A program made the position numbers and the translations under genes. From assembly GCA_016213235.1 (NCBI GenBank), contig JACRBE010000059.1, positions 1 through 61,197 on the forward strand: a stretch of DNA of 61,197 bases, given 5' to 3'. Each line of letters starts with the position of its first letter. Position 1 is the first letter of the stretch. Below the pieces are notes generated by a model, which was given only the letters and a program-made list of their open reading frames with translations, searched no databases and was not told the DNA's origin. Of this stretch, positions 1,554-57,532 are shown piece by piece. This DNA comes from Chlamydiales bacterium (lineage in GTDB: Bacteria; Chlamydiota; Chlamydiia; Chlamydiales; JACRBE01).

Positions 1554-1726
1554 TATACAACAACCTTGTATGTTTCGTTATTTTACTAAAACATCATTTT
1601 TTGCATCAAATAGGGCATTCCGAAGTAAAGATTGTGGTGTAACTTTTTAAAAACAAAAATTATTTATAAATATAAAAACACGAATAATTTATACTGTAAT
1701 CATTTTTGTAAGACATTACGTAAGTT

Positions 1727-3847: not shown

Positions 3848-3922
3848 TGCCAAAACAGCAGACGAGAATGTTCTTTAAAGAATATCAAATCTAAACCTCT
3901 ATTAAAGAGCAGGAGAATCTCT

Positions 3923-4867
3923 CTATGATTTAGAAGCAAAGTGTTGTCTTTTTGCTTCTTCTATTTTTTCAACCCAATATTTCATATAAAGTTTTCTCAT
4001 ATCGTACTTTTTATTTTTGATTTCTTGATATTTTGCATTAAGAAAATCTTCTGTGACGTCACTCCAATCATCTACTATTAATATAGGCAACCCTTGGCAC
4101 AAACCATCTAAGGCCGAAGATTTAACAATCGGAATAGCTCCGACTAGCAAAGCCTCCCAATGTCTATAACAATCAAGCATATCGCCCCAAGGAGAGAGTA
4201 CAAATTTATGATTCGCCATTTCTTCCATATAATCTCTGAAAGGCTTTGGATTGGATGCTGTGACATATGACATGCTTGCAAATCTGTCATGTATAGCCCC
4301 CCGCCCATCATATCTTCCAGGATGAACGGTAAAATTCATATATAGAAGATTTGTTTTAGGTTTGGTCTTAAGTTGTTCAAAATATAGGTTTATTTTCTTT
4401 CTCTGAAAAAATATATTTTCATCTCTGAGTATTCCAAGAGGGATAATTGTGCATTTTGGAAACAATATAGCATCACGGTTACAGTTTGCAAACCATGCAA
4501 TCAACTTCGGATCATTAATATATTTCAAATCTCTCATTGTAGGTCCATGATACAGTGTAACTAGAATATAAGGATTTTTGATTCTTGGATGAATTTCTTC
4601 AAAAAAACTATCAATACTATAAGCCGTAGCAAATATTACACTTCCTTCAGGAACTTGTTCTGGTTCAAAAGGAGTTGCATTTTTAAAATTATGGGCTGCG
4701 CCATCTGAATGATTTGCGTAAGCAAAGTCACAGATATTCATCCAAGTCCACCGTTGAACAAATATTTCTTCCAAATTTTCATTTTTTATTTTTGGGAATA
4801 AACTATTGGACTCTGCAAATCCATAAATGGTTGTTATAAGAAGTAATGCTACAAATAAGTTCTTCAT
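3923..4867 (-). CDS. Secreted exostosin/GT47-like glycosyltransferase
   Basis: Signal peptide MKNLFVALLLITTIYGFA; exostosin-type motif HKFVLSPWGDMLDCYRHWEALLVGAIPIV. Confidence 0.7.
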   Translation of the reverse strand: MKNLFVALLLITTIYGFAESNSLFPKIKNENLEEIFVQRWTWMNICDFAYANHSDGAAHNFKNATPFEPEQVPEGSVIFATAYSIDSFFEEIHPRIKNPYILVTLYHGPTMRDLKYINDPKLIAWFANCNRDAILFPKCTIIPLGILRDENIFFQRKKINLYFEQLKTKPKTNLLYMNFTVHPGRYDGRGAIHDRFASMSYVTASNPKPFRDYMEEMANHKFVLSPWGDMLDCYRHWEALLVGAIPIVKSSALDGLCQGLPILIVDDWSDVTEDFLNAKYQEIKNKKYDMRKLYMKYWVEKIEEAKRQHFASKS

Positions 4868-5859
4868 ATTTTTTCTGATCTGTTATGGCGGCAAGGCCAT
4901 GTGATATTGTTTTTTGGCAAATAAATAGATTGAATATATGGATTAAAAAAAGTCACGAAATCAGCGATATTACTTGACGAATGAATAAATAAGTCGCACT
5001 TTGAAAGCAACAAACAATCCATAAGAACCCCTTTTCCTCCAAAATAAGCTGGTTTTTTGCGATGGAATTCAGCTGGATGAGTCTTCCAATAATCAGCACT
5101 ACCATAGATTAGATGAGGTTCTTCACGATAGTTACTTCGAAAAGCAGGAATGTGTAAAGCAATACCAGGAAAGTATTTATCAAACTGCTGCACCACATAA
5201 TGGCTATCTGTAGCCAGGAAAATTCTAATATTATTTTTTCCCTTTTCTTGTATTAACCTTTTGGTTTCTAGAATATAATCTTCAACTGTTGGCGTTCCTT
5301 TAGGAGATTCCATAGCGTGGTCACACCCATAACGGACATGAACGCCTATGCAGTAATATCTTTCCATATTTTTTTCATAAAACCGGTCTGTTTCATTAAG
5401 AATCTCATCTTTCACTTTGATATGCTTTTTAATCACATCATGAATAGCCAATCTATAAGGGAAATATTTATCATAAGACATCCACTGTTCAATACAACCT
5501 TGATCGTGCAGTGCGTGATATGATGAACCAGAAATAAGCTTATTGGAGATTTCTATATCTAGGGAAATTTCCTTATTGATCAAGATAGAATCGAAATAAA
5601 GATCCCATCCATTCTCATGAGGGTTATTCTTAAAAGGGAAAAATTCTTGAGTCCAATCAACATAAATTCTCTGTAAATTTTTATGATCAAAAAAGATAAT
5701 ATTATCTACTACCTTATGAAGTTCAGCAAAGAATCCGGCTCCCAAATGAGAACAAATTGTTAATTCTGCAGGAAGGCACTCTTGAGTTTGTTTTGCAAAT
5801 CCGCATATAGAAAGCACCAGAAATAGCAGGTAATGGTTTTTTATGACCAGTTTCTTCAT
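4864..5859 (-). CDS. Secreted NodZ/GT23-like (O-FucT-like) fucosyltransferase
   Basis: FucT motif I IGVHVRYG, motif II IFLATDS, motif III DCLLLSKCDLFIHSSSNI; N-terminal GAGFFA; signal peptide ending CGFA; 4-bp overlap with the downstream gene. Confidence 0.75.
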   Translation of the reverse strand: MKKLVIKNHYLLFLVLSICGFAKQTQECLPAELTICSHLGAGFFAELHKVVDNIIFFDHKNLQRIYVDWTQEFFPFKNNPHENGWDLYFDSILINKEISLDIEISNKLISGSSYHALHDQGCIEQWMSYDKYFPYRLAIHDVIKKHIKVKDEILNETDRFYEKNMERYYCIGVHVRYGCDHAMESPKGTPTVEDYILETKRLIQEKGKNNIRIFLATDSHYVVQQFDKYFPGIALHIPAFRSNYREEPHLIYGSADYWKTHPAEFHRKKPAYFGGKGVLMDCLLLSKCDLFIHSSSNIADFVTFFNPYIQSIYLPKNNITWPCRHNRSEKI

Positions 5860-6099
5860 AATTACTGCCCCTTAACAAATGGCACACCGGGGATCTTATA
5901 CTATGATTTTCTAAAATTTCAAGGCATTATTTGAATGCTCATTAAATTTGAGAGCAAAAGATCTTGGGTTGTTGATAGCAAATTAATTTAAAATCGCACA
6001 GACGTTTCTTTACATAACTTTAGGAGTGTTATAATTAAAAAAACATTGCTTGTGAATTAGTGAATTTCCTAATCTTAAAAATTATAACCAAAGTTTTTT

Positions 6100-6777
6100 A
6101 TGAAAAAACTACTATTCTTGTTAATTTTTCCCTGCTTAGTGTTTTCCTTAGATAAGGATTACATCATCATTACATTAGGAGAAAACTGCGTTGTTACAGG
6201 GAGTATGGAATTACTTAAAATTAAACAAGAATCCTATCCTTTTGAATGGAATATTTGTAGTTTTTCTTCTGTATACGAATGCATAAAAGATGATTTCAAA
6301 GATTTTACGAATCCTGATTATTTTACTCCATATATAGACAATCGAAGCCCCGTTAATAGATATGGTATTTGCCTTGCTCATAATTTTCCAATCGTGCTTG
6401 TTGGCATAAACAAGGAAGGAATCGAGGTTTATAAACTAGATCCCAACTGGCGACACTACTTGCCAGCTGTACAAGAAAAATATCAACGTAGAATAGATCG
6501 ATTTCGACATGCATGTCTTTCTGATAAAAAGGTTTTCTTTATTCGATATCCTGGTGTGTCCAAAGTTGAAGCTACACAATTTTCCAAACTAATTTCCTCT
6601 TTGTATCCGGATCTTGATTTTACTTTTCTTTCTGTTAATATTAACCCCATACCTCCTCGTGAAAAGGAACAATGGAATATACCTCACGTAAAGCTCTATT
6701 ATATTACCCCATCAACTTCAGAAAAAGAATGCACACAATGGAAAGAGATTATGACAAACGTTGGTGTTTTACATTAA
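6100..6777 (+). CDS. DUF1796 family protein (annotated putative papain-like peptidase), with signal peptide
   Basis: ITLGENC, SYPFEW, KYQRRIDRF and VFFIR motifs; signal peptide MKKLLFLLIFPCLVFS. Confidence 0.75.
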   Translation: MKKLLFLLIFPCLVFSLDKDYIIITLGENCVVTGSMELLKIKQESYPFEWNICSFSSVYECIKDDFKDFTNPDYFTPYIDNRSPVNRYGICLAHNFPIVLVGINKEGIEVYKLDPNWRHYLPAVQEKYQRRIDRFRHACLSDKKVFFIRYPGVSKVEATQFSKLISSLYPDLDFTFLSVNINPIPPREKEQWNIPHVKLYYITPSTSEKECTQWKEIMTNVGVLH

Positions 6778-7046
6778 CCAAATGGAAATACATAATTCCA
6801 TTATGAAAGGTGAACATAAAGCTTTTCTGTTTTTATTTTCACGCTTCGTTATTTCTCCGTTTATTTCCTGATTAGGGAACAAAACTTATTGACAATATAC
6901 GAAATATTTCCAATAGTTCTAATGCATAATTAGTGAATTCAAGGTGTTTTGAACATACTCTTTTTGAAGCAATTAGAATAGAAAACGAGTATAGAAGCAG
7001 GTATGTAAATCTTAAATAAATTGTTATTAAATATTTGGAGAAAGTT

Positions 7047-7829
7047 ATGTATAAAAGATTGTCTTATGCTTTACCTATATTAGTGTACTTGTTATTTCCA
7101 ATGGCATCTGAAGCGGTCATTTCAGATCTTAATAAGTATCAAATGTTTTTGGAGAGTGGCACTTATGACAATTTAGATTGGACTATCTTTGCCGCTAAAC
7201 CAAAATCTAGATTTTATACATTAAAAAGAGCCTTTGAAGAGTTTGCAAATAATAATGGAAAAACCATTGTTGAACTAGGCACTTTAAGAAGTTTTGTTGA
7301 TGGGAAATACATCGGATGTAATTCTGATGATACTAAATATTGGGAATCAAACAATCCTGAGAAATGGGATTGGGGTGCTGGTTTTTTTTCCTATTTAGCT
7401 GCAGCTTGTTTGTCAGAATTAAATCCGACGATTCATACAGTAGATATTATTTCTAGCCATATTAAGAGATGTCAAACCATTACTGCACAGTTTAAGCATC
7501 TTTTTACGTATCATGTATCATCTTCAGAAGATTTTTTAAATCAATGTAAATCACAGTCGATTGACTTGCTTTACATGGATACAGGCGATATTTATCCTAT
7601 AGAACCTTCTGCACAGCTGCATTTGAGGGAAGCAAAAATTATCGTAAAAAAGGATCTAATCCCTAGCGGCGGTCTGATTTTAATTGATGATGTAAAACAT
7701 CCTGTACCGATTAAATTAGACAATGATAAAACTTTCATGGGGAAAGCAAAATACTCTTTGCCATATTTGTTATCGCATGGATTTGAAATAATAGAAGATG
7801 AATTTCAAGTGTTGCTTAGAAAAAAATAA
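7047..7829 (+). CDS. Secreted class I SAM-dependent methyltransferase (Methyltransf_24-like)
   Basis: IVELGT, IDLLYMD, GGLILIDD; ATG at 7047 has a GGAG SD; signal peptide ending ASEA. Confidence 0.8.
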   Translation: MYKRLSYALPILVYLLFPMASEAVISDLNKYQMFLESGTYDNLDWTIFAAKPKSRFYTLKRAFEEFANNNGKTIVELGTLRSFVDGKYIGCNSDDTKYWESNNPEKWDWGAGFFSYLAAACLSELNPTIHTVDIISSHIKRCQTITAQFKHLFTYHVSSSEDFLNQCKSQSIDLLYMDTGDIYPIEPSAQLHLREAKIIVKKDLIPSGGLILIDDVKHPVPIKLDNDKTFMGKAKYSLPYLLSHGFEIIEDEFQVLLRKK

Positions 7830-7839
7830 TAGGATTACT

Positions 7840-8820
7840 ATGAAACATATTTTTTTATATCTATTAATAGTTATTGCAGTACCTACTTTTTCTATGGACT
7901 TTGATAAAGTAGTTATTTGGGGGCATAAATTACACTCCCATACTCATTCTTATATACATAATGCTTTTTATAAAGCATTTAAGAGCCTTGGATATGCTAC
8001 CTATTGGGTTGATGAGCATGATGATGTATCTAAAATAGATTTTTCCCATTCTCTTTTCCTTACAGAAGGGCAAGTTGACAATAATATTCCTTTGCGTGAC
8101 GATTCATTTTATATCTTACATAACTGCACTTCACATAAATATCGTCAAATCATAAAAAATAAACGTTTTATTACTTTACAGGTTTATACTGATGATGTGC
8201 TGACACGTCCAACTGCTATACGAGTCTCTCCTTGTATTCATTATGATTATGCCGGCAGATGTCTTTACATGCCTTGGGCTACGGATTTATTACCATCAGA
8301 AATTGAAGCAATTCAACAGAATATAACAAAAATCACTAAACAGCCTATGATTGCCTGGATAGGAACTATTAGTGATGGAGAGTTTGGAAACATTTCTGAG
8401 TTAATGCCTTTTGTGGAAGAAGCACGTAAGCTTGGCATGACCTTTATACGCAAACAACACATCAGTGATAAAGAGAATAAAAACATCATTGCTCACTCAT
8501 TATTGGCTCCTGCCATTGTCGGAAAGTGGCAAAAGGAAAAAGGGTATATTCCTTGCAGGATTTTTAAAAATATCAGCTATGGCGGTTTAGGAATAACCAA
8601 CTCTCTTCGCGTATGTGAGCTTTTTAATAATAATATTATATACGACCCTGACCCAAGAGTCTTATTTAAAAAGGCATATCATGCAGCTCGTGCTTTAGAC
8701 CATGATACATTGGAATCTCAAATGGAATTTGTTAAAGCGCATCATACTTATATTAATCGAATTAATACAATATTAGAATTTATCGATCAATTAGATGAAA
8801 GGAATGTATTAGACAATTAA
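7840..8820 (+). CDS. Putative secreted GT-B-type glycosyltransferase; paralog of 519..1553
   Basis: MKHIFLYLLIVIAVPTFS followed by KVVIWGHKLHSHTHSYIH, MPWATDLLP, YIPCRIFKNISYG, HTYINRI; ATG at 7840 has an AGGA SD. Confidence 0.65.
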   Translation: MKHIFLYLLIVIAVPTFSMDFDKVVIWGHKLHSHTHSYIHNAFYKAFKSLGYATYWVDEHDDVSKIDFSHSLFLTEGQVDNNIPLRDDSFYILHNCTSHKYRQIIKNKRFITLQVYTDDVLTRPTAIRVSPCIHYDYAGRCLYMPWATDLLPSEIEAIQQNITKITKQPMIAWIGTISDGEFGNISELMPFVEEARKLGMTFIRKQHISDKENKNIIAHSLLAPAIVGKWQKEKGYIPCRIFKNISYGGLGITNSLRVCELFNNNIIYDPDPRVLFKKAYHAARALDHDTLESQMEFVKAHHTYINRINTILEFIDQLDERNVLDN

Positions 8821-8836
8821 TTTTTTTTATTATTGA

Positions 8837-9736
8837 ATGAAAGAGAAAATCATGCGAATTATTGGAATATTATTTTTATTTATTACACTAACTTGTAGCT
8901 ATGCTAATGAAAAAACACTCATTATTTCTCATCATTATGCGCAACCATTTTTCATTGAGCTGCAAGCGAAGACATTTCGTAAATTTATTAAAGATGACTA
9001 CGAATTTGTTGTATTTAACGATGCTAAAACCAGGGAATTAGAGCAGGAAATTTATCAATTATGTAAAAAGTACCAAATTCGTTGTATTCGTATTTCACCT
9101 GAAATACATAATCGGCCTTATTTATTTCGATTAAAGGGAGAAGATTATAATCATCCTTGCGTGCGTTGTGCCAATGTAGTGCAATACTCATTAGATATCT
9201 TGGGTTTCGATTATCCCGGGAAGGTAGTGATTATAGATTCTGATATGTTTCTAACAAAACCATTTTCTTTTGTAGAATATATGAATGGATATGATCTTGT
9301 TGCAGTACCGCAATCAAGAGATAATGGTGTAAAATATATTTGGAATGGAATAATTATGTTTAATATGCCGACACTACCTAATAGAAAAATGATGAATTTT
9401 AACTGTGGACGAATCGATGATGCACCAGTAGATGCTGGCGGGTATACTCATTATTATCTATCAAAGTATGCAGACATAATTAAAATAAAGGAAATAGGCC
9501 CTGCACATTTTTCTCATACGATTGATGATTACCATAATGGAGCGCTAGATTCCAATATGAATCATTTAATTCCTCTCATCGAGCTAGATCCTCCATCAAA
9601 TATGGAGACGTTTTTACAGGGGGCGATATTGCATTATAGAGGAGGGGGTCTTTGGGATCCGAAGCCAACTTCATACTATCAAAGAAAGAACAATTGTTTG
9701 CGAACATATATAGAATATATTCTTGAAAAAGAATAA
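8837..9736 (+). CDS. Secreted DxD-motif (GT-A-like) glycosyltransferase
   Basis: FVVFNDA, VVIIDSDMFL (DxD), YIWNGI, DAGG, ILHYRGG; signal peptide from ATG 8852, MRIIGILFLFITLTCSYA. Confidence 0.55.
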   Translation: MKEKIMRIIGILFLFITLTCSYANEKTLIISHHYAQPFFIELQAKTFRKFIKDDYEFVVFNDAKTRELEQEIYQLCKKYQIRCIRISPEIHNRPYLFRLKGEDYNHPCVRCANVVQYSLDILGFDYPGKVVIIDSDMFLTKPFSFVEYMNGYDLVAVPQSRDNGVKYIWNGIIMFNMPTLPNRKMMNFNCGRIDDAPVDAGGYTHYYLSKYADIIKIKEIGPAHFSHTIDDYHNGALDSNMNHLIPLIELDPPSNMETFLQGAILHYRGGGLWDPKPTSYYQRKNNCLRTYIEYILEKE

Positions 9737-9738
9737 AA

Positions 9739-10911
9739 TCAATTAGATAAGTTCAATGTATTATACTCTTTTAACACATGATATAAATATAAATATGTTG
9801 TGTTAATATCGAGATATTGTTTAGCGAACTCTTTGCCATTTATGGCAATTTGCTTTGCTTTTTCATCATTTTCTTTTAACCACATAATTATATCCGCTAA
9901 ATCACTGCAATCTGTTTGATAAGGTATATAATGTATATAAGGTTTTAATCCGGAATAATACCATTGAATATTTCCGCTATTTTGTTTAATAGACACACAA
10001 TTTGATCGTAATATCCACTGACACCGATGAAATCCATTTGAATATCCATCTACATCTATTAAATATTTGTATACACATGCATCATAGGGGAGAATTCCAT
10101 GAGAGCATAACAGAGGAGCAAAAGAATGCATTTCTTGACATATATGCGTTTGCTCTGGTGAAAAGTTTGTAAATTTTGCCCAAATAAGATCAGGATGATC
10201 AAGTGCAAATAAAACGAGTGTTGCACGACAGTTCATGCGCCAGGTCTTTTCATTGTTGAAATCTTTTCCGTTAGGGGCCCCAAGCCAGAAAGCTTTTGCA
10301 AGTTTTTGATCCCACGGAAAATCTTCGCTTGCTTTATCAATTTGCAACATTAAACTTGGCCTATCTTCCCAGACAGCAAACCAATCAGGTATGGTGATGT
10401 AGTTAGATGCATAATGTTTAGAAAAACATAAGATCGGATATTGTGACTGTTTATGGTGTACACCATCTCCAACGTCAAGAATATAATCCCCGGATGCGAT
10501 TCCAAATTCCGGCTGAGTTAAAATCCAATGCAAAGCCATAGCATATTCAGCTGCATTAGAGGGGAGTCTTTCGCTGTTATTACATCGCACATATAATTTA
10601 CCAGTACGAATGCGAAATTGTACCAATGTATTACGAGAATTAAAAAAACACTCTTCTAATTCTTCTAATGAAAAAGGATGAAAATTGCTTAGCTCTTGTT
10701 TAATATTAGCCAGCATCCAATCTGGAAGCTCATCGGTTTTTTGTACAGATGGTTGCAGAGTTGCAAAAGCGTTACTGTATAAAGATTTGAATCGATCTTT
10801 AACATATTCTTCAACATCGTTAAATTCATAATAAATGCGTTCATTAGCATTAATAGTTGAAATAGATATAATCAAATAAAAAATAAAAGTCTTTTTTCGA
10901 TATATTAGCAT
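9739..10911 (-). CDS. Secreted GT90 / CAP10-domain glycosyltransferase (POGLUT/KDELC-like)
   Basis: PWDQKLAKAFWLG, YKYLIDVDG, QWYYSGLKPYIHYIP, WLKENDEKAKQIAINGKEFA; signal peptide ending TINA. Confidence 0.85.
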   Translation of the reverse strand: MLIYRKKTFIFYLIISISTINANERIYYEFNDVEEYVKDRFKSLYSNAFATLQPSVQKTDELPDWMLANIKQELSNFHPFSLEELEECFFNSRNTLVQFRIRTGKLYVRCNNSERLPSNAAEYAMALHWILTQPEFGIASGDYILDVGDGVHHKQSQYPILCFSKHYASNYITIPDWFAVWEDRPSLMLQIDKASEDFPWDQKLAKAFWLGAPNGKDFNNEKTWRMNCRATLVLFALDHPDLIWAKFTNFSPEQTHICQEMHSFAPLLCSHGILPYDACVYKYLIDVDGYSNGFHRCQWILRSNCVSIKQNSGNIQWYYSGLKPYIHYIPYQTDCSDLADIIMWLKENDEKAKQIAINGKEFAKQYLDINTTYLYLYHVLKEYNTLNLSN

Positions 10912-10955
10912 TTTTAATTCTAAGTAAAATAATATCTTATATTAATAATTTTTTA

Positions 10956-11816
10956 TTAGTTATTAATATATGATTGCAAATATTTCTCCACCAAAGAAGG
11001 GTGATGCTCGATGATCCAGTCATCGACTTCTTGCCAAAATGACGGAGGCAATTTCTTTTGATGATATATCAAGGACTGTGTTAAAGAGTTATCTTTTGTG
11101 CTTTCGCTTTTACCGAAATTTTGTTCAAATAACCTGATGGATCTTTCCTGATGAAACTCCAACTTTTCAAGAAATTCATCAATATCAGGATGAGCTTGTC
11201 CAAGAAATTGTACAAGTTGTATTAATACTGGTTTGGGATTTAACATGAGATCTTCATAATAGATAAGTAATCTGTTATGTTCAGGCCATTTATCATAGAG
11301 GTAGATATTAGAAAAATAAGCACAATCCTTATCGAATAACTCCCCTTGAATTCTATTAGGCAGTTTCCATCTTTTATAGCTGCACTCTTTATAGTTGCGA
11401 AGTAATAAAATAAGCTTATCTTTCGTTGCATTGAAATTTTTATTAAGCATTTTATAAACCCTATTCATGTAACTGGGATCATGGCATTTCCAAATCATTG
11501 ATGCAAACAGGTCCGTATGTAAATCTTGATAAGTGAATCCAATTGGTAAATTAGCAAGTCTGAGATCGGTAGACTGCATGGTAGGTCGTTTTGTTAAAGA
11601 TTCAATACAATACCTGCACCAGGTATTACCGGAGTGTATTTCAGACAATAAAAAGGTTACATCTTCTTGATCTTTATTATATAATGATAGTGTTTGGAAT
11701 AGCTGCAGCCTTGTAAGTGGGTCAATCAAGGATCGGTTCTGAATGGCAAAGCTTAATAAGGGATGAATGACAGCAAATACAAAAAATGCATATCGAAAAT
11801 ATCTACAATTTAACAT
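10956..11816 (-). CDS. Secreted sulfotransferase-domain protein
   Basis: 5'-PSB-like SEIHSGNTWCRY, KCH, 3'-PB-like ILLLRNYKEC, LLIYYEDL; signal peptide ending LSFA. Confidence 0.7.
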   Translation of the reverse strand: MLNCRYFRYAFFVFAVIHPLLSFAIQNRSLIDPLTRLQLFQTLSLYNKDQEDVTFLLSEIHSGNTWCRYCIESLTKRPTMQSTDLRLANLPIGFTYQDLHTDLFASMIWKCHDPSYMNRVYKMLNKNFNATKDKLILLLRNYKECSYKRWKLPNRIQGELFDKDCAYFSNIYLYDKWPEHNRLLIYYEDLMLNPKPVLIQLVQFLGQAHPDIDEFLEKLEFHQERSIRLFEQNFGKSESTKDNSLTQSLIYHQKKLPPSFWQEVDDWIIEHHPSLVEKYLQSYINN

Positions 11817-11934
11817 GTGAGCCTCCTAAATACAAAGTTCAGGCTTTTCTGTATGCCAACAGAAGATATGCAGAATCCAACTAACATTTTTCTCTAATGT
11901 TCCTTTCAAGATACACATACTTTTGTAATAAGTA

Positions 11935-13539
11935 TCATTTCTTTAAAGGAGAATATGGTGGTAATGCACGTACATATTTATCTAAATAACGTTGTAATTC
12001 CATACTTACCTGATGATCGCTAATAGGATTCCTATCGTTATATATGTATAGTATTTTAGAAATAAACTGATAATGATTAGGCCCGCAAAGCTCCATCATA
12101 GGAATCATAGCTGCCATATCCCAGGTCATTTCCAGAAATTTGCCATCATACATAAAATTCTCTTTCTTCAGGTTGTTGAATAACCAGCATCTAAAAGTTT
12201 TCAAGTGAGAAGGGATGTTTTGCCATTTTCTATATGCGTTTTTTGCATTGATATGGTAAGGATAGTCTCGACAAAACCCTAGAACATGACTGTTTTTTTC
12301 CATATATTGACCATAGGTGAGCCATACATCTTTATTTGATTTGCGATAAATGCGGTCTAAATAAGAAAGAACATGTTTGTTGGCGAGCTCATCGTCTCCA
12401 TCTAGAATGACTACTACATTATTGGGCGGTACAAAGCGATGAATAGTGGTATAATAGTTGTAAGCAGCTCCCCTGCGCTCTGCATTTTGAATAAACGTCA
12501 CTCTATGTGTATTGTTTGTTTGCTGAACATAGCGTTGTACTTTTGTAAATGTGTCGTCTTGAGAGCAGTCATCAATGAAATAAATATGAAAATCACTATA
12601 TTTTTGCTCCAGGGCGCTTTTGATATTATCAATGCAGTAGCTTGTATTATTATAGGAAGCGATTACAATGGAAAAACCTGTAGAAGGAGGTTCTGTTTTG
12701 GAAATAATTTGTGGTAAGGACGTGAGAACAGGATATTTTGGTAGTGTTCGGATGTATATATCCAAATCTTTTTGTAGTGTTTTACTAACTCTGTGGTCGC
12801 TAATAGGGTTGTTGTCATTGTAAGTGTATAAAACATCTTTAATAAAACGGAAATTAGGCCCACACATTTCCATCATAGGGAGCATCATGGCCATATCCCA
12901 AGTCATAGGATAAAATTCACCATTATATTTTAGATCCTCAATTTGAATTTTTTTAAAAAGCCAGGAATAAAACGTTCTTAAATGGGATGGAATATGATGC
13001 CATTTACGATAGTCTTGATTTTGTACAATCTTTTCCGGCATAGGGGAACAAAAGCCGATATTTTTCGAGTTTTTCTCCTGAAATTGCCCGTAGGTTAACC
13101 ATACCTTATTATTTTCATCGGAGTACACTTTATTTAAATAGCTTAGCACATTGGAATGAGCTAGCGCATCATCTCCATCCAGTAATACAATGATATCATC
13201 ATCATCGGTATGTTCGTAGATAGAATGAAAAATATTCTTTAGCGCACCGCTTCGAGTAGGGTTATCTATAATGGTTAAGATGTCTTTTTTAGGAGAAGCC
13301 TCAATGATACAGTTAATGATATCGCTTGTAGCATCTGTAGAGCAATCATTGATATAAATGATTTTGTAGTTTGTGTAATTTTGATTAAGGGCACTTTCAA
13401 TATTCCACTTTGCATAGGCTTCATTATTATAAGAAGGAATAATGATAGCCATCGGCTTTTCAGAGGTAGTAGAAAAGAGAGACGAGATTAAAACTGCAAA
13501 TAGTATTGTAAATATAGAGCTTGATATCCATTTGTTCAT
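11935..13539 (-). CDS. Secreted glycosyltransferase family 2 with two tandem GT2 domains
   Basis: Two copies each of I-SYNN, I-DCS-D, LDGDD-L, VWLTYGQ, IPSHL-TF, MTWDMA and YND-NPISDH; hydrophobic N-terminus. Confidence 0.9.
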   Translation of the reverse strand: MNKWISSSIFTILFAVLISSLFSTTSEKPMAIIIPSYNNEAYAKWNIESALNQNYTNYKIIYINDCSTDATSDIINCIIEASPKKDILTIIDNPTRSGALKNIFHSIYEHTDDDDIIVLLDGDDALAHSNVLSYLNKVYSDENNKVWLTYGQFQEKNSKNIGFCSPMPEKIVQNQDYRKWHHIPSHLRTFYSWLFKKIQIEDLKYNGEFYPMTWDMAMMLPMMEMCGPNFRFIKDVLYTYNDNNPISDHRVSKTLQKDLDIYIRTLPKYPVLTSLPQIISKTEPPSTGFSIVIASYNNTSYCIDNIKSALEQKYSDFHIYFIDDCSQDDTFTKVQRYVQQTNNTHRVTFIQNAERRGAAYNYYTTIHRFVPPNNVVVILDGDDELANKHVLSYLDRIYRKSNKDVWLTYGQYMEKNSHVLGFCRDYPYHINAKNAYRKWQNIPSHLKTFRCWLFNNLKKENFMYDGKFLEMTWDMAAMIPMMELCGPNHYQFISKILYIYNDRNPISDHQVSMELQRYLDKYVRALPPYSPLKK

Positions 13540-13542
13540 AAA

Positions 13543-14277
13543 TTACTTCCTCATTTCGGCATGGTTTTTGTCTAAAGCTAAGAGTTTTTTCTCATAGGGC
13601 AGGTTCCAACTTTCTGGATAACAATAAGATGGGTTTAATATTTTTGTGGGAGGATTGTTGATAAAGTATCTGTTGAGATGGCTTTCGTCATGCCAAACAG
13701 CGATGAAGTTTTTTGTTAGATCCGCTTCTATATTGTTGGAAAGAGTCCCACAAAGTTTAACAAATTCTTCCTTGTTTGCTCCATAAAAACCACCGGCAAA
13801 GTAATAAGATCCTTCATTATCATTAATACAAGCCATCGAGATAGGATTGGTTTCATAAGATCCGCGTTTGCCCACAAATCCGGGATGCTGAGTGGCTACA
13901 CGATCGGAAAGGATTTCAGAGCCAACATCTGCAACAAAAAGCATGTCTGCATCACTTGCAAAAATATAATCTAAATCGTTAAAAGCATCTTTATTGTTGT
14001 AATAAACGCTAAATCGCATCATGGTATCATGTGGCCATCCTAGCCTTTTTTGTTCAATACGAACAACATCTTTTGCGGGTTGCAATTGTTGATCAGTAAA
14101 AACAAAGTAGGTTACTTTATGATCAGTGCAAAAATGTTTTCTTGCTGATTCGATAAACGTTTCTGCATAGGTGGCATATTTTCCTGTAGCCATAATACAA
14201 AGACCCACATTTTTGCATTCGCTAAGAGTTACAATTGAAAGAAAACAAGAAATCAGAGAGATTATTAGCTTACGCAT
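13543..14277 (-). CDS. Glycosyltransferase family 6 (ABO-like alpha-1,3-GalNAc/Gal transferase) with signal peptide
   Basis: ATGKY, FIESARKHF, YFVFTD, DADMLF, QHPG, YFAGGFYG, WHDESHLNRY, ILNPSYC, KNHAEMR. Confidence 0.93.
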   Translation of the reverse strand: MRKLIISLISCFLSIVTLSECKNVGLCIMATGKYATYAETFIESARKHFCTDHKVTYFVFTDQQLQPAKDVVRIEQKRLGWPHDTMMRFSVYYNNKDAFNDLDYIFASDADMLFVADVGSEILSDRVATQHPGFVGKRGSYETNPISMACINDNEGSYYFAGGFYGANKEEFVKLCGTLSNNIEADLTKNFIAVWHDESHLNRYFINNPPTKILNPSYCYPESWNLPYEKKLLALDKNHAEMRK

Positions 14278-14304: not shown

Positions 14305-15540
14305 ATGCTGGATAAAATAATTAAATTTGTCAATATTTCTTTCCTGTTTCTATTTATGATTCAAGCAGATATTCGCCTTGGTGTAGATCGTTTTTTTACT
14401 GATGGATTTGCTTTAGAAATTAAAGGAAAAAACGTAGCCCTTTATACGAATCATACAGGAATTAATTCAGAGAGAAAAAGTACCATTGCATTATTTCGGG
14501 AAAAGTCGGGGAAAGATTTTCAGTTTGTTGCCATTTTTACACCGGAGCATGGCATTAACGGTAGCAGTTTTGCTAATGAAAAAGTAGATTCTCAAGTGGG
14601 AAAGATACCCATTTACAGTTTGCATGGTGATGTGCGCCGCCCGAGCGAATCAATGCTAAAAAATGTAGAGGTCATTGTTTGTGATATTCAAGATATTGGT
14701 GTTAGATCTTATACCTATGCAACAACGCTATTTTATATCATGGAAGAAGCGGCTAAAAAAAAGATAGCAGTTGTTGTGTTAGATAGGCCCAATCCACTTG
14801 GAGATGTAGTAGATGGACCTATGTTAAATGATAAATATAGATCATTTGTTGGACATATCAATGTTCCGTATTGTCACGGGATGACGCTGGGTGAACTTGC
14901 TATGTTTTTTAATGAAGAATATAACATACGTGCGGCTCTTAAAGTAGTATCGATGCAGGGATATAAAAGAGATATGGTGTTTTATGAAACAGGTCTTTCA
15001 TGGATTCCAACAAGTCCCCATATTCCGGAAGCAGACACCCCTTTTTTTTATGCAGCTACAGGGCTAATGGGCGATCTTAGCCTGGTGAATATTGGTGTTG
15101 GTTATACACTTCCATTTAAGATAGTGGGTGCGCCCTGGATTGATGCAGATCGGTTAGCAAAACTATTAAATGATCAGAAACTGACAGGAGTTTATTTTTC
15201 ACCGTTTCATTTCAAACCTTTTTTTGGTTTGTATAAGGGAGAGGAGTGTCATGGAATTATTATCCATATTACAAATGCCAAAGCATTTAAACCGCTAATT
15301 GTGCAGTATGTTCTTTTAGGAACGCTGAAAAATATGTATCCCGACATTGTAGAAAAAAAATTAAAAGAGCTCCCGCTGCAGAAAAAAGAAGCTTTTTGTA
15401 AGACGACAGGGGGAGAGGAGATTTACTCTATGCTCGTGAATGAAAAGTATGTAATCTGGAAATTGATGGAACTTCACAAGAAGGAAAGAGCGGAATTTGT
15501 CTTAAAAAGAGAGAAATATCTTGTGCCCGAATACAAATAA
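14305..15540 (+). CDS. namZ: Exo-beta-N-acetylmuramidase NamZ / YbbC (DUF1343)
   Basis: TNHTG, FTPEHG, DIQDIGVRSYTY, LDRPNPLG, HGMTLGELA, WIPTSPHIP. Confidence 0.9.
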   Translation: MLDKIIKFVNISFLFLFMIQADIRLGVDRFFTDGFALEIKGKNVALYTNHTGINSERKSTIALFREKSGKDFQFVAIFTPEHGINGSSFANEKVDSQVGKIPIYSLHGDVRRPSESMLKNVEVIVCDIQDIGVRSYTYATTLFYIMEEAAKKKIAVVVLDRPNPLGDVVDGPMLNDKYRSFVGHINVPYCHGMTLGELAMFFNEEYNIRAALKVVSMQGYKRDMVFYETGLSWIPTSPHIPEADTPFFYAATGLMGDLSLVNIGVGYTLPFKIVGAPWIDADRLAKLLNDQKLTGVYFSPFHFKPFFGLYKGEECHGIIIHITNAKAFKPLIVQYVLLGTLKNMYPDIVEKKLKELPLQKKEAFCKTTGGEEIYSMLVNEKYVIWKLMELHKKERAEFVLKREKYLVPEYK

Positions 15541-21104: not shown

Positions 21105-22202
21105 ATGAGAAAGATAATAGTATTAATTTTATTTTGTTATTTACAGGTAGTACAAGGGGAAAATAATAGGTTAAAAGTTCTTCATTTAACGCTTCATATG
21201 GGGTGCTATAAGGAGATACAAAGTATTGCCAAGGAGTTGAATATTGATTTGGAAAACGTATTTGTACACCATCTTCCCAAAGAGCAATTTGATGGGATAA
21301 CTACCGGATCAGCCAGATATAATATAGGCGCTAAAAGAGCTAAGAACATATGGGAAGTGAATCAAGAGTATTTCTCTTCTTTTGATGCAGTAATCACTTC
21401 GGACACCGTGCCACTTGCAAGGACCTTTTTACAACATAATTTTGATAAGCCGCTTATTATTTGGGTTTGCAACAGATTTGACTATGCAGATGGAGCCTCG
21501 CTTGATTGTAATTTCCCGGATAGCGCTTATTACGATTTAATTAAATCCATACCATCTAGGCCAAATGTAAGGATTCTTTCTTACACTCCTTTTGAGCATA
21601 TTTATGCCAAAAATTATCGAGGGATAGCAGTGTGGTCCGATGTTATCAAGCCGATTGGAGATTATGAAAAGTCGGAGCATTTTCAATCTGCAATTCCAAA
21701 TAATATTGATAAAACACAGACTTTTTTTATCCCTCAATACCACAATGATACCTTCTTGCTTGATCTGGAAAAAACGGTAAGGAAATTAGGAGTCCCATGT
21801 TATCGGGGTAGATACAATGGCCCAGATGATTTAAAAGATTTTAAGGGGATTATACATATTCCTTATGCCTGGTCCAATTTAGCCTTATTTGAAAACTGGC
21901 AAAATGGAGTAATCTATTTTATTCCCTCTAAAAAGTTCTTTTTACAGCTGTCTCAATCAGGAAATTTCTTCTTTTCACCACCGTTTAATTTTAAATATAT
22001 TCAATATGCAGAATGGTATTTGGAAGAGCATAAGGATTTATTTGTGTTTTTTGATTCATGGAAAGATCTAGAAAGAAAAATAGCAGAAACAGACTATGAA
22101 CGGAAACGAGAGGATATATTGGAATTTGCTCATCAACATAGGGAAAAGACACTTTCGCAGTGGAGGAGTGTATTTCATGATTTGGGACTACAAATAGAGT
22201 GA
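21105..22202 (+). CDS. Secreted glycosyltransferase-like hypothetical protein
   Basis: Signal peptide MRKIIVLILFCYLQVVQG; FDAVITSDT, LIIWVCNRFDY, and GT-B-like GIIHIPYAWSNLALFE...YFIPS. Confidence 0.5.
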   Translation: MRKIIVLILFCYLQVVQGENNRLKVLHLTLHMGCYKEIQSIAKELNIDLENVFVHHLPKEQFDGITTGSARYNIGAKRAKNIWEVNQEYFSSFDAVITSDTVPLARTFLQHNFDKPLIIWVCNRFDYADGASLDCNFPDSAYYDLIKSIPSRPNVRILSYTPFEHIYAKNYRGIAVWSDVIKPIGDYEKSEHFQSAIPNNIDKTQTFFIPQYHNDTFLLDLEKTVRKLGVPCYRGRYNGPDDLKDFKGIIHIPYAWSNLALFENWQNGVIYFIPSKKFFLQLSQSGNFFFSPPFNFKYIQYAEWYLEEHKDLFVFFDSWKDLERKIAETDYERKREDILEFAHQHREKTLSQWRSVFHDLGLQIE

Positions 22203-33180: not shown

Positions 33181-34080
33181 ATGAAAAATATTTACACCAA
33201 AACATTTACAAGAAAAGATCTTTTATCTGATTGGGAAATAAACGGATTATCTCCATTTAATCGATTTATTATTTCCTGGAATGGAACGCGCTTTCTTCAT
33301 CCGTGTCATATAGAAATATCTTTGTTATATGACACATGGACCGATCTTGTCAGATATGCTACATGGGGAGTAGGAATACAACGCTCTTATTCCTATCAAG
33401 ATTCTCAAGACAGATTTCGCATCTGTCAAGATGAGATTATCATCAACGATATGAGTTATAAAAAAATGAAGGTTCATGTGACAGACTCCAGTAGCATACA
33501 CCGATTATATTTATCTGCTCTCCAGGAAGAGGCTTTTAATGAATACGCGGATGATGAGATAATAGATAGTGATACAGTTATATTATCTCCAAAACACAGG
33601 TATTCTCAATTTGGATTAAATCTTGAGTATTCGCATAGAATATGCTCTCCTGTGTCTTTAATGAATGCAATGTCGTTCCTGGATGTCGCTTTAGAAGAGG
33701 ATCCCAGTCTATTTGTGAATGGCGTATACGACCAGGCCTTTGATATCTTTGGTAATTGGGTACTAAATGTGGCGCATGTTTCTTCTTTTTTAAAGAAGTA
33801 CAATCCTAAAGTAGAACGCTTGAGCAGCTTTAAAGGCATTTATCGGCAACTGTGCAATCATAAACCGGTAGTTGTTTCTCTTTCAGGATTATTAACTGGA
33901 GCTCCACAAAGCTATTCACAGGGACATCTAGTCGTTGTTTATGGCTGGGATAATAAAACAAAACAGGTTTGTTGTATTGACTCTGCATTTGCCTTTCACG
34001 ATCAAACGCAAGTCAAATATGATTGTTATGAATTTATAAACGCTTGGAAAATAAAAAAATACTTAACATATACATTTTAA
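33181..34080 (+). CDS. Peptidase C39-like family protein
   Basis: YSQ...ICSPVS (Cys), [15 protein letters not shown] (His), CIDS (Asp). Confidence 0.8.
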
Positions 34081-34094
34081 TAATAAGGGGTTAT

Positions 34095-35192
34095 ATGAAA
34101 AAATGGATGATAATTTGTACACTACTATGGTCTATTCAACTTTTTGGAGCAAAAAAAGCGCTTATTTTTGGAATTACAGGGCAAGATGGTTCTTATCTTG
34201 CAGAGTTATTACTTGAAAAAGGATATGAAGTGCATGGGGTAAAACGAAGATCATCTTCTTTTAATACACAGCGCGTCGATCACTTATATGAAAGTATTAG
34301 TGCAAAGGAAGGGAGATTTTTCCTACATTATGGGGATTTAGTAGACGGTCTTAATGTAGTGAGATTAATTCAAGATATTGTGCCTGATGAGATTTATAAC
34401 CTTGGAGCGCAAAGTCATGTGCAAGTGTCGTTTGAAGAGCCAGAATATACAGCAGAAGTGGATGGAGTGGGAACTCTTAGAGTGTTGGAGGCCATTCATT
34501 TATTAAAACTAGAAAATAAAATCCGATATTATCAAGCATCTACTAGTGAATTATTTGGTAAAGTACAAGAAATTCCACAAAAAGAGACCACTCCATTTTA
34601 TCCAAGATCTCCTTATGGTGTAGCAAAATTATATGCATATTGGATCACGGTGAACTATCGAGAAGCTTATAACATCTATGCGTGTAATGGTATCTTATTT
34701 AATCATGAGTCAGAGCGTAGAGGAGAGACATTTGTTACGAAGAAAATATCGATGGCTGTTGCGAGGATTAAAGAGGGGCTGCAAGAGTGTCTTGTTTTAG
34801 GGAATTTGGATGCAAGGAGGGATTGGGGCCATGCAAAAGACTATGTGCAGGCAATGTGGCTGATGTTACAGCAAGATAAACCAGAAGATTTTATCATAGC
34901 AACCGGAGAGCAGCATAGTGTACGGGAATTTGTCGAAAAATGTTTTACAGAAGTTGGCATGGAAATTGGTTGGGAAGGTGAAGGTCTAGAGGAAGTAGGA
35001 AGAGATCGTGCTACAAATAAGGTTTTAGTAAAAGTAAATCCAAGGTATTATCGGCCTACAGAAGTAGAAGAGTTACTTGGTGATCCTAGTTTAGCGAAGG
35101 TAAAACTAGGATGGGAACCTACGATTTCTTTTGATGAGTTAGTAAAAATGATGGTTGCAGACGATTTAGCAAAAGTGCGCAAAGAAATATAA
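34095..35192 (+). CDS. gmd: GDP-mannose 4,6-dehydratase with an N-terminal signal-peptide-like extension
   Basis: [50 protein letters not shown] 34095 has an AAGGGG SD; leader [18 protein letters not shown]. Confidence 0.97.
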
Positions 35193-35205: not shown

Positions 35206-36213
35206 ATGAAACGAGCCATTTTTTTCATGGTAGCAGTTGTAAGATTGGCATTTACATATGAATTTACGGATCAATTTCCTGATGAAGATGATTTATTGAT
35301 TGATTTAGTATTTTCTTATCCAAATCGTGAGATGCAATCCATGCAAGAAATAGTAGCAGCAGATATCATGTATATGGTTGCACTAAAAGCCTGCCATCAT
35401 AGCTCTCAGATGGTTGTACAGCCATTTTCTTGTTGGGTTGCAAAAACACATCGTGTATATGATCCATATCAGTTTAGGTTAATGAAAGTTGCAAAAACAG
35501 ATCAAGGGAGTGTAAAAAGATTTTGGATGAAATTAAAAGAGTTGTCTACAAAAGGAATTACAAAAGAAGATTTTGAGACTGCAAAAAAAGGACTGCTGGA
35601 TTTTTTAGATAAATTCAGACAACAGACAGGAAAAATAAAGCAATTCTTGGATCAATATCGCTTGATATTGAATGAACTAGATCAATCAACATCCAATGCT
35701 TACTTCAAAAGTGTACTGGCAGTAAATGAATTAAACATCAGTTATGCGATCAATCCTGTTAGTTTAGCGTATTGTCATATGGCGCAAGCTCCCAGAATTA
35801 TTTTAATTGATCATACAGATGGGTTTAAGCTTGAGCTAACAGAAGAAGATAAAGCAAATATATATGAGATTATCCATACCATGGGAACAAATGGTTTGTT
35901 TTCACTGTTAAAGAAGAAAGGTCATCTCCAATCACTGGGGAAAAAGATCAATCACGTAGGGCCACTGCAGTTGCTAGCTTATGTATTTACAGAACCTACT
36001 CTAAAACATGATATGAAGGCAGTGTATTCCAATAACTTTAAATGGTCTAATTTTATTGATGGATTATCAAAAACATTAAAAAGAGATTGGCGCACAGGTA
36101 TTATCAAACCACAGCTTAGTGGGTTTGCGCAGTTAGTTGGTAAAGATCCGGCCGTACTGGAAAAGCATCTTGAGCGAAGTGAAATTGATGCATTTGTAAA
36201 AGAGCTGTTGTAA
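35206..36213 (+). CDS. Secreted hypothetical protein, apparently co-transcribed with gmd
   Basis: 13-bp gap with an AAGGAG SD; N-terminus MKRAIFFMVAVVRLAFT; helical C-terminal domain. Confidence 0.6.
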   Translation: MKRAIFFMVAVVRLAFTYEFTDQFPDEDDLLIDLVFSYPNREMQSMQEIVAADIMYMVALKACHHSSQMVVQPFSCWVAKTHRVYDPYQFRLMKVAKTDQGSVKRFWMKLKELSTKGITKEDFETAKKGLLDFLDKFRQQTGKIKQFLDQYRLILNELDQSTSNAYFKSVLAVNELNISYAINPVSLAYCHMAQAPRIILIDHTDGFKLELTEEDKANIYEIIHTMGTNGLFSLLKKKGHLQSLGKKINHVGPLQLLAYVFTEPTLKHDMKAVYSNNFKWSNFIDGLSKTLKRDWRTGIIKPQLSGFAQLVGKDPAVLEKHLERSEIDAFVKELL

Positions 36214-55350: not shown

Positions 55351-56193
55351 ATGGATTCTATAGAAAAAAATGACTTGGCCGGCATTGGGAGGATCTCAAG
55401 ACATCGCCTCTCTGAAGTGCTTCGTAAGGTTAAAGGGGGTTGCATTACTTCCAAGAATGTAGCGGAATTTCTTAACGTTTCTACAAGCCAAGCTCGCGCA
55501 TTTCTATCCGCTTGGGCTGCAAATGGATGGTTATACAGAGTGCGGCAAGGTATCTATGTGCCTATTGATATTGCTGCCACCTCTTCCGATCAGTCTTTGA
55601 TAGATCCTGGGATTGTTGCAAATGAACTATTTGCGCCTTGCTACATTGGAGGATGGTCAGCAGCTCAGCATTGGGGTTTTACGGAGCAGATTTTTGAATC
55701 AATGTTGATCATCACATCAAGACACATCAACGGGAAAAAGCAATTAGCTGGTGACTTGCATTTTTTGATCAAGAAACTTAAGGCTGAGAAAATGTTTGGT
55801 CTGAAGGCTGTATGGAAAGAACAGCTCAAGGTTCAAGTATCTGACCCTCATAAAACAATTATAGACATGTTCGATGACCCTTCTGTTGGAGGTGGAATGC
55901 GTTCGGTGATAGATTTTTTTCAACAATATCTCTCCTCTTCTCACTTTAATGCCGATACTCTTCTTGCATATGCCTCAAGAATGGATAACAAAACTATTTT
56001 CAAGCGTTTAGGTTTTGTTTTATCTAAAATTAATCCCAACGCAACTGCATTGATCGACTATTGTAAACAGAATATCAGCCAGGGGAACTCTCAGCTTGAT
56101 CCTACTCTGAAAGGAAATCGTCTACTTAAAAAATGGAGGCTCTGGATTCCTGTGAATTTTGAAAAACACATGAATTGGACTGAACATGATTGA
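55351..56193 (+). CDS. abiEi: Type IV TA antitoxin AbiEi (wHTH transcriptional regulator)
   Basis: GWLYRVRQGIY, YIGGWSAAQHWGFTEQ, SDPHKTIID, KRLGF, WRLWIP. Confidence 0.9.
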   Translation: MDSIEKNDLAGIGRISRHRLSEVLRKVKGGCITSKNVAEFLNVSTSQARAFLSAWAANGWLYRVRQGIYVPIDIAATSSDQSLIDPGIVANELFAPCYIGGWSAAQHWGFTEQIFESMLIITSRHINGKKQLAGDLHFLIKKLKAEKMFGLKAVWKEQLKVQVSDPHKTIIDMFDDPSVGGGMRSVIDFFQQYLSSSHFNADTLLAYASRMDNKTIFKRLGFVLSKINPNATALIDYCKQNISQGNSQLDPTLKGNRLLKKWRLWIPVNFEKHMNWTEHD

Positions 56194-57532
56194 TAAATTG
56201 GAGGTGCTTCAACTAGCCAAAAACGCGGGATTGCAAAACTCTACAATCGAAAAAGACTATGTTTTAGGATGGGTATTAATAGGCCTCCAAAACAATTCTA
56301 AGATTGGAGACTCGTGGATTTTTAAAGGTGGCACATGCCTTAAAAAATGTTTTTTTGATGAATATCGCTTTTCTGAGGATTTGGACTTCACATTGATAGA
56401 TCTTGCCCAAATGAACGAATCTTTTCTCATGAGCGTTTTAAAGGAGCTTGCTGAATGGGCATATGATGAGACAGGGATTGAAATTCCTTTGAAAAGTTTC
56501 TCCGTGGAATTCTATACAAATTTGCAAGGATCTCTCTCAGCTCAAACCAAGTTTTCTTACATTGGCCCCTTAAAACAAAAAAAGACAAATAGCCTTCCCA
56601 CTATCAAGCTAGATCTTACCCCACATGAAAAAGTCGTGTTAATTCCTGAGAGACGCGAAATCTTCCACCACTATTCAGATAAGCCTCTGAATTCTCCAAA
56701 AGCCTTTTGTTATTGTTATGAGGAAATCTTCGCTGAAAAGTTACGTGCCCTAGCAGAAAGGGCTAGGCCTCGGGATCTCTATGACATCATTCATCTTTAT
56801 CAAGAACGCCAAAGGCTTGGAGAAAAAAGTAAATTTTTTGAGTCTCTTGAACAAAAATGTTCTTTTAAGAAAATGCCTTTGCCCAGCCTGGAAACGATTG
56901 AAAGACATCCTCAAAAGGCCATCCTCTCTTCCGAATGGGAAAACATGTTAAGTCATCAACTGCCAATGTTAAGACCTTTTGAGAATTTTTGGGAGCAGCT
57001 CCCTCATATTTTCAACTGGGTTTATGAGGATTATCCTAAAGCATTTTTAACGCAATTAAACTCATTTCTAACGCAGAAGAAAGCCTGGACCTGTATCGTA
57101 CTTATTTGTGAAAACGATCTAACTTTCCCTTATCAGGAAAGATATTTCGTTTCGATACCCAGTGAAGAAATTATCAGGCTGAATCAATCAAGTAAGGTGT
57201 GGTGTCAACCATTGAATCTCATCGATGTGACGATAAAAGGGAATGCTCAATTCATCCACGATAAATTGTATGAAGCGATCGTAATGTATCTCGATGAGCA
57301 AACAAAAGCATTTGTTTCGCATGATTCGCAGGCAAAAAATCAGAAAGCGATTTCTTTGGCAGAAGTAAGACCTGGGGACGTTGTTGAAGTTCCTGGCTAT
57401 TTTTTAAACGATTGGAATAAACGGATCAATCCTTCTTCGGGATATGTGCACTACTGGTTTCAACCCACCATAGTACTGCCACCTCATATGAAAATGAAAC
57501 TCATTCAGGCGGCTAGAAGAAAAAGATTCTAA
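56186..57532 (+). CDS. abiEii: Type IV TA toxin AbiEii nucleotidyltransferase with C-terminal extension
   Basis: IEKDY, FKGGTCLKK, RFSEDLDF, EKLRAL, RPRDLYD; 8-bp overlap with abiEi. Confidence 0.92.
   Translation: MIDKLEVLQLAKNAGLQNSTIEKDYVLGWVLIGLQNNSKIGDSWIFKGGTCLKKCFFDEYRFSEDLDFTLIDLAQMNESFLMSVLKELAEWAYDETGIEIPLKSFSVEFYTNLQGSLSAQTKFSYIGPLKQKKTNSLPTIKLDLTPHEKVVLIPERREIFHHYSDKPLNSPKAFCYCYEEIFAEKLRALAERARPRDLYDIIHLYQERQRLGEKSKFFESLEQKCSFKKMPLPSLETIERHPQKAILSSEWENMLSHQLPMLRPFENFWEQLPHIFNWVYEDYPKAFLTQLNSFLTQKKAWTCIVLICENDLTFPYQERYFVSIPSEEIIRLNQSSKVWCQPLNLIDVTIKGNAQFIHDKLYEAIVMYLDEQTKAFVSHDSQAKNQKAISLAEVRPGDVVEVPGYFLNDWNKRINPSSGYVHYWFQPTIVLPPHMKMKLIQAARRKRF

Follow-up and report, generated by a model that had tools for sequence, protein, structure and literature searches.

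The gene treated here, gmd at 34095-35192 on the plus strand, lies in a window (the whole stretch of DNA that was analysed) of 61,197 nucleotides, which is contig C45 of a 1.47-Mb genome (G000; 81% complete; G, C, L and f numbers are our handles for genomes, contigs, loci and families). On translation the gene is an unbroken frame of 365 amino acids, an 18-residue leader followed by the start of a Rossmann fold. The features of the window are:

531..14277, strand both or unspecified: cluster of leader-bearing glycan enzymes
4864..5859, minus strand: NodZ-like (GT23-type) fucosyltransferase with a leader; the genome encodes three such proteins
14305..15540: NamZ-like exo-beta-N-acetylmuramidase with a leader, adjoining the glycosyltransferase cluster
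21105..22202, plus strand: leader-bearing protein with Chlamydiota and Nucleocytoviricota clusters as Atlas look-alikes
33181..34080, plus strand: peptidase C39-like, upstream gene of a likely operon with gmd, no leader seen
34084..34090, plus strand: Shine-Dalgarno-like TAAGGGG before Met1 (sequence)
34095..34148, plus strand: predicted Sec/SPI signal peptide, 18 codons (own rule, eye, structure model)
34149..35192, plus strand: mature GDP-mannose 4,6-dehydratase (motifs, solved structures, TIGR01472)
35206..36213, plus strand: leader-bearing protein without assigned function, next gene after gmd
55351..57532: AbiEi/AbiEii type IV toxin-antitoxin pair

An ATP/ADP translocase and DUF2709 are also encoded in the window. 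Both mark the genome as probably chlamydial, as do a Chlamydiae-named hit that pairs with the Gmd of a family relative and records titled Chlamydiota that carry this protein type. The cluster at 531-14277 comprises GT47/RXYLT1-like, NodZ-like, DUF1796, methyltransferase, two related GT-like, GT90, sulfotransferase, GT2 and GT6 genes with uvrD interleaved; the genome has further leader-bearing glycan enzymes outside it. The product of 21105-22202 is probably a glycosyltransferase, which we take as a lead only. The C-terminal domain of 35206-36213 belongs to a family of 14 members in 6 loci, located downstream of leader-gmd in f1, f2 and f34; among its Atlas look-alikes nothing scored above 0.87. 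A tandem, leader-bearing family of 150-200 amino acids directly follows leader-gmd in three families (window 35206-36213; L045, L046, L063, L077, L086) and may act as an acceptor or partner.

The gmd gene, its leader and its start

The product passed the gmd profile TIGR01472 with 588.5 bits (cut-off 415) over residues 20-360 and aligned with solved Gmd structures from residue 17-22 onward. GITGQDG (26-32), KRRSS (50-54), T150/E152 and Y174xxxK178 are intact, as are the substrate motifs FNHE (202), RDWG (242) and YRP (319). We take these motifs to have their catalytic, NADP-binding (Arg pair 51-52) and substrate roles. Ahead of them stands a leader with an MKK n-region (+2), a 15-residue uncharged run, an 11-residue core and L-F-G before A19. 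By our own rule these are the properties of a Sec/SPI signal peptide, i.e. a positive n-region, a hydrophobic core of 7-15 residues and small residues at -3/-1, and the (-3,-1) rule predicts cleavage after G18 (L-F-G / A). In a structure model (mean pLDDT 90) residues 2-15 form a separate helix ahead of the strand 21-25. The leader has no lipobox and Cys8 is its only cysteine; no cysteine is conserved across 25 aligned leaders. It has no twin arginine and none of the 25 contains RRxF, so a Tat signal is not indicated. TatC was not found in the window genome (81% complete).

The rule used for scoring called for an uncharged 9-residue window with a mean hydropathy of at least 2 and a positive n-region, and was combined with reading by eye. 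It flagged 126 of the 1255 predicted genes of the genome and 15 of 53 on the window contig. As a control for chance, out-of-frame upstream stretches of the same genome were scored, and 1 of 2470 passed.

The ATG of gmd is 14 nt past the upstream stop, and the TAAGGGG ends 4 nt 5' of it. The GxxGQDG motif is preceded by just three in-frame starts, TTG at -42, ATG at -25 (Met1) and ATG at -21 (Met5, without a Shine-Dalgarno sequence); the scan found no start codon of any kind at the Rossmann strand. The public gene call begins at Met5 (P0002, 361 aa) and still retains the hydrophobic core. A public groundwater metagenome run, the only listed run with this sequence and probably of the source sample, contained one contig identical to 33700-34871 with zero differences; no RNA run was listed. 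An assembly error behind the leader is thus not supported; the identity over the start region argues against this error only. A missed internal start or an accidental extension was rejected because of the chance control and because a proximal ATG, regular in leaderless genes, is absent from leader-type genes (see below). The sequence-only reading had seen a textbook Gmd preceded by a leader, a good Shine-Dalgarno sequence at the ATG and no ATG at the Rossmann strand; all of this was borne out. At the level of sequence it is confirmed that gmd encodes an intact Gmd with a predicted Sec-type leader at its probable translation start.

Leaders on Gmd and other chlamydial enzymes

Gmd was matched in 118 of 301 genomes of the phylum, and the N-termini of 114 of the 137 matches were read; genome counts across chlamydiae concern kin and are phylogenetically not independent. 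The sequence-only reading had proposed aligning chlamydial Gmd N-termini. A leader recurs on 37 of the 114 genes (32 genomes, 14 families; one, in G045, is borderline), and 77 are leaderless. Among leaderless genes, 69 of 77 have an ATG located 6-13 codons ahead of the motif, vs 0 of 37 leader-type genes, and a proximal start with a Shine-Dalgarno sequence in 54/77 vs 0/37; nine leader-type genes have GTG or TTG there, none with such a sequence. A hydrophobic core was seen in 36/37 leader-type vs 4/77 leaderless genes. Across the 25 leaders that were aligned, the median length of the uncharged run is 15 (12-22), the n-charge is at least +1 in 23, and an acidic spacer often comes next. The sequence varies and the architecture is constant, as expected of signal peptides. 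The same architecture is found on outer-membrane and periplasmic proteins of the window genome.

Four genomes encode Gmd in the two forms, with and without a leader. The order SpoIIE, pcnB, gmd, leader family of no assigned function and GT is common to f1, f2 and f34; thus the leader form is old at the gmd locus. A tree built from mature domains places 35 of the 37 leader-type Gmd to one side of a branch with SH 96, a grouping that lost its resolution with wider sampling. An AU test of one leader-Gmd clade gave p = 0.08 with 44 rows, i.e. a single clade is neither rejected nor shown. Outside chlamydiae a leader is rare; of 124 Gmd representatives (50% identity) that were read, 2 had one. The profile search found no cultured chlamydia carrying leader-Gmd; its matches were mostly leaderless Gmd. 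One record titled Chlamydia trachomatis (L298) is probably mislabelled, as its gmd groups with f34 and has the same gene order. Leader-Gmd was further seen in records without a chlamydial title (L283, L321, L326, L331, L364), two of them with leader-bearing neighbours. The Thr-to-Phe change (ALIFG) was rejected as an export mark: among the matches listed, 105 of the 118 ALIFG-type genes read have no leader. One was present on 8/8 genes titled Chlamydiota and on 5/110 others, these five from records titled only Pseudomonadota or bacterium. Cysteine count was discarded as a clue to compartment (3.1 vs 3.2, no difference). Two leader-gmd paralogues per genome, often in tandem with one more divergent, were noted at L072 (G257), L080 (G286), L092 (G248), L052 (G009) and L076/L106 (G302). 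Some Gmd paralogues are degenerate and have lost substrate-site residues; divergent leader-gmd paralogues are candidates for a reductase role.

Fcl genes adjoining gmd carry a leader in 11/11 cases beside leader-gmd and in 0/21 beside leaderless gmd. Fcl was matched in 17 of the 32 leader-Gmd genomes, and a leader is present in all 17, on 18 of 19 genes (the remaining, weaker second copy was not read). Leader-Fcl spans 9 chlamydial families and lies far from gmd in seven cases; the Fcl of G228 is frameshifted. No Fcl match was obtained in the other 15, i.e. the window genome (profile search; 81% complete) and 14 more. Uxs-like proteins, which we so name from a motif and a Ugd neighbour, had a leader in 8 of 29 read. 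At L215 (G274) adjacent genes for Ugd (UDP-glucose dehydrogenase) and a Uxs-like protein both have leaders, and a further Fcl/GME-like SDR with a leader lies near the gmd of G159. A perosamine-type aminotransferase as a partner in the window genome was dismissed, since only weak matches to unrelated PLP enzymes were obtained. Nucleotidyltransferases had no leader in the 27 listed, nor in the ManC-like or RfbF-like genes read separately. The suggestion to look for leaders on other NDP-sugar enzymes was therefore productive for Fcl, Uxs-like proteins and Ugd and failed for ManC and its kind. Likewise, the earlier claim that donor synthesis is exported gains support from comparison for the converting enzymes, which by their predicted leaders may leave the cytoplasm, yet does not extend to the nucleotidyltransferases.

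Other enzymes are similarly equipped, among them users of host cofactors such as AdoMet decarboxylase, thiamine diphosphokinase, PfkB kinase and SAM methyltransferases. In the window genome, where 50 leader proteins were scanned, leaders also occur on a thiamine diphosphokinase, a PfkB kinase, an APH/choline-kinase-like protein, SAM methyltransferases and a 2OG-Fe oxygenase. Individual loci are the thiamine diphosphokinase at C6:2102-2791, the PfkB kinase at C51:24790-25887, the thiamine/choline-kinase-like protein at C11:4421-5344, a DUF952-peptide deformylase fusion at C56:9451-10506 and an Fe/Mn superoxide dismutase at C9:6568-7260 (all G000). A serpin (G000 C40:12547-13740) and a GH64 beta-1,3-glucanase-like protein (C51:42617-44539) also bear leaders. 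AdoMet decarboxylase was matched in 81 of 301 genomes of the phylum and by eye has a leader in 28/30 loci; the loci concerned are G000 C15:88-489 (L177) and L404-L433. In L429 and L430 a leader-bearing spermidine synthase-like gene adjoins it, and these predicted leaders suggest an exported polyamine synthesis. MetK was not found in the window genome.

According to the sequence-only reading, Gmd pairs with a secreted fucosyltransferase. Three NodZ-like proteins are indeed encoded in this genome, yet with Fcl missing from the matches here and in 14 more leader genomes the pairing is weaker than stated. Matches to NodZ-like proteins came from 34 of 300 genomes, of which 10 belong to the 32 with leader-Gmd, 7 have other Gmd and 17 gave no Gmd match; by eye 21 of 23 read have a leader.

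Proposed substrate supply and site of Gmd action

A manC-like neighbour is present at 43 leaderless gmd loci and at no leader locus. The ManC profile TIGR01479 was matched in 6/28 leader-only, 31/43 leaderless-only and 4/4 mixed genomes, which as kin are not independent; 22/28 and 12/43 gave no match. Ten leader-Gmd genomes that are 92-96% complete contain only RmlA-, GlgC- and RfbF-type nucleotidyltransferases and no GDP-mannose pyrophosphorylase. In G021 (1 contig, 94%), which has a cytosolic gmd-fcl, only RmlA and GlgC and no guanylyltransferase were seen. Since this and other leaderless genomes gave no ManC match either, the lack of ManC does not set the leader type apart. ManC was not found in the window genome (81% complete). 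All four family relatives of this genome that were searched have a ManC-like gene, leaderless in all three read, and the topA region in which it lies is missing from the window assembly. Hence the lack of ManC here is uninformative, and the organism may make its own GDP-mannose.

On balance we favor, from gene content and predicted leaders, that Gmd is exported via Sec and acts outside the bacterial cytoplasm on host-derived GDP-mannose, feeding exported glycosyltransferases. Sec would move Gmd across the inner membrane, possibly followed by type II secretion into the inclusion lumen; gspD/E/F are present on contig C26. Cleavage after G18 would leave AKKALIF..., the natural start of a cytosolic Gmd. 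Because Sec carries unfolded chains, the enzyme would have to fold and load NADP after export, with GDP-mannose and NADP presumably provided by the host. The 4-keto-6-deoxy product would be converted to GDP-L-fucose by exported Fcl where present, otherwise to GDP-D-rhamnose or another deoxysugar; candidates for the product of the route are GDP-fucose, GDP-D-rhamnose and the 4-keto intermediate. Exported glycosyl-, sulfo- and methyltransferases could use such donors for a variable surface glycan. The bacterium would take universal host donors (GDP-Man, UDP-Glc) and make rarer ones itself in the compartment of use. As to this compartment, we tentatively prefer the periplasm; the inclusion lumen is a slightly less likely choice, for which luminal glycogen synthesis and the known Sec/type II substrates (see below) set a precedent. 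The periplasm is slightly favored because a leader alone suffices, so that many unrelated enzymes could have gained one, and because host SAM and NAD+, which chlamydiae import, must cross it to reach inner-membrane carriers (PMC3104491, excerpt). The inclusion membrane is cited as permeable only below 520 Da (PMC3104491, excerpt). GDP-mannose and NADPH are above this limit and for either compartment would have to cross it, which calls for a transporter; none for either was identified in the window genome, where the sole weak match is an EamA protein discussed below. The earlier conclusion that the target compartment contains GDP-mannose presupposes that export does take place.

Of the alternatives, the first would take Gmd further: after Sec export it would reach the host cytosol through type II secretion or in vesicles and act as an effector that, together with exported transferases, glycosylates targets in the host or on the inclusion surface. 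There GDP-Man, NAD(P)H, SAM, PAPS and ATP would be supplied without transporters, host FX could finish the route in the 15/32 genomes where Fcl was missing, and the eukaryote-type GT families would fit. On the other hand, most hosts already make cytosolic GDP-fucose, so Gmd and Fcl would be redundant, and each substrate would need its own type II recognition. CPAF, HtrA, CT311 and CT795, proteins with Sec signals, were detected in host cytosol, yet a path from lumen to cytosol is not known and detection depended on fixation (PMC6717882, excerpt). We consider this route unlikely. Hardly any better is the prospect that the leader, as a hydrophobic tail that stays uncleaved or does not support export, anchors Gmd to the inner membrane on its cytoplasmic side, with cytosolic chemistry. 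This would sidestep all cofactor problems, agree with the cytosolic ManC of the family relatives, and could be favored by the AKK at which the mature part starts, as positive charges can hinder Sec export. It is at odds with the leader architecture, i.e. the positive n-regions, the uncharged run and the many acidic spacers shared with proteins that do reach periplasm and outer membrane, with the 22 leader-only genomes that show no ManC, and with the four genomes that keep both Gmd forms.

Next, exported Gmd might draw on GDP-mannose made by the bacterium itself and carried out by a nucleotide-sugar exporter of the inner membrane, in the manner of a self-contained bacterial Golgi. The ManC-like genes in all four relatives and in six leader-only genomes agree with this, as does a locus in which EamA transporter, NodZ-like and sulfotransferase genes stand in a row (G000 C33:5300-8102, L181). 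However, this EamA gene is single-copy, reached 21 bits with Nuc_sug_transp (cut-off 27) and shares 45-51% identity with genes whose loci also contain thrS and parA, presumably the position of the SAM transporter. It was therefore rejected as a bacterial nucleotide-sugar transporter and is probably a SAM transporter. Together with the ten well-covered leader genomes that have no GDP-mannose pyrophosphorylase this makes self-supply improbable. Finally, a non-catalytic or sink function, in which exported Gmd depletes host GDP-mannose or moonlights, might explain genomes without a matched reductase and paralogues without substrate-site residues, yet is very improbable in view of the co-tagged Fcl, Uxs-like and Ugd enzymes, which point to complete donor routes, and the intact active site of the window Gmd.

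Returning to export with host-derived GDP-mannose, the exported set (Gmd, Fcl, Ugd, Uxs, Leloir glycosyl-, sulfo- and methyltransferases, AdoMet decarboxylase and thiamine diphosphokinase) might constitute a Golgi-like compartment outside the cytoplasm, run on host GDP-mannose, UDP-glucose, NAD(P)H, SAM and ATP and building a hypervariable glycan coat without lipid-linked donors. We regard this broader proposal as evenly balanced.

Relation to known systems

Bacterial nucleotide-sugar synthesis is commonly regarded as cytosolic, and extracytoplasmic glycan assembly as dependent on lipid-linked donors or sucrose. From the leaders on Gmd (14 families) and Fcl (9 families) it would follow that the periplasm or vacuole offers NADP(H) and GDP-mannose. 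Export would explain the many leader-bearing eukaryote-type glycosyltransferases in these genomes. Leader-Gmd would allow one to test directly which metabolites of the host get to a bacterium living inside its cells, and metabolic reconstructions of these genomes would place such enzymes in the wrong compartment. We found no description in the literature of signal peptides on chlamydial or other bacterial Gmd or Fcl, although supplements of genome papers may list such predictions; the excerpt of PMC13229535 does not mention glycosylation. Enzyme family and signal type are each known; what appears to be new is their combination, the phylum-wide picture for chlamydial Gmd, Fcl, Uxs and Ugd, and the contrast with the nucleotidyltransferases.

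The window enzyme resembles known Gmd (TIGR01472 / PF16363; E. coli 1DB3, human 5IN4) in its full-length match above cut-off and all catalytic motifs, and differs in its 18-residue hydrophobic leader and in having no adjoining manC. In the eukaryotic Golgi lumen, UDP-xylose synthase and Leloir glycosyltransferases combine donor conversion and transfer outside the cytoplasm, fed by nucleotide-sugar transporters, and the families GT6, GT47, GT90, GT32, GT17 and GT92 are shared with it. Yet eukaryotic Gmd and FX are cytosolic, the chlamydial leader looks cleavable and no transporter was identified. Giant viruses such as chloroviruses use host donors, and the window gene 21105-22202 has giant-virus look-alikes. 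Viral enzymes are synthesized in the cytosol of the host, where no export signal is required, whereas the chlamydial Gmd bears a leader. PBCV-1, too, is a parasite encoding its own GMD; this enzyme alone can yield GDP-D-rhamnose and is a model for leader genomes without Fcl (PMC9415975, excerpt).

Chlamydial proteins with Sec signals reach the inclusion lumen by type II secretion (PMC6717882, excerpt). These substrates (CPAF, Ptr, CT311, CT795, HtrA) have a cleavable Sec signal, as is predicted for Gmd, and gspD/E/F are present in the window genome; the known substrates are proteases or proteins of no known function, not cofactor-dependent biosynthetic enzymes. Type II substrates are not known to carry a sequence signal for this step. 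The closest parallel is luminal glycogen. In C. trachomatis, glycogen enzymes with the exception of GlgC are secreted into the lumen, where host UDP-Glc arrives via SLC35D2 (PMC4829429, excerpt). There, as proposed here, bacterial enzymes that have left the cell use a nucleotide sugar of the host, and it is the nucleotidyltransferase that stays behind (PMC4829429, PMC6717882, excerpts). The glycogen enzymes have no signal peptide, use type III secretion and consume the donor for a storage glucan. In contrast, the leader-Gmd set carries Sec-type leaders, and Gmd, Fcl, Uxs and Ugd convert donors, need NAD(P) and would serve a heteroglycan. Exported Gmd and Fcl would extend this single known case to a general strategy.
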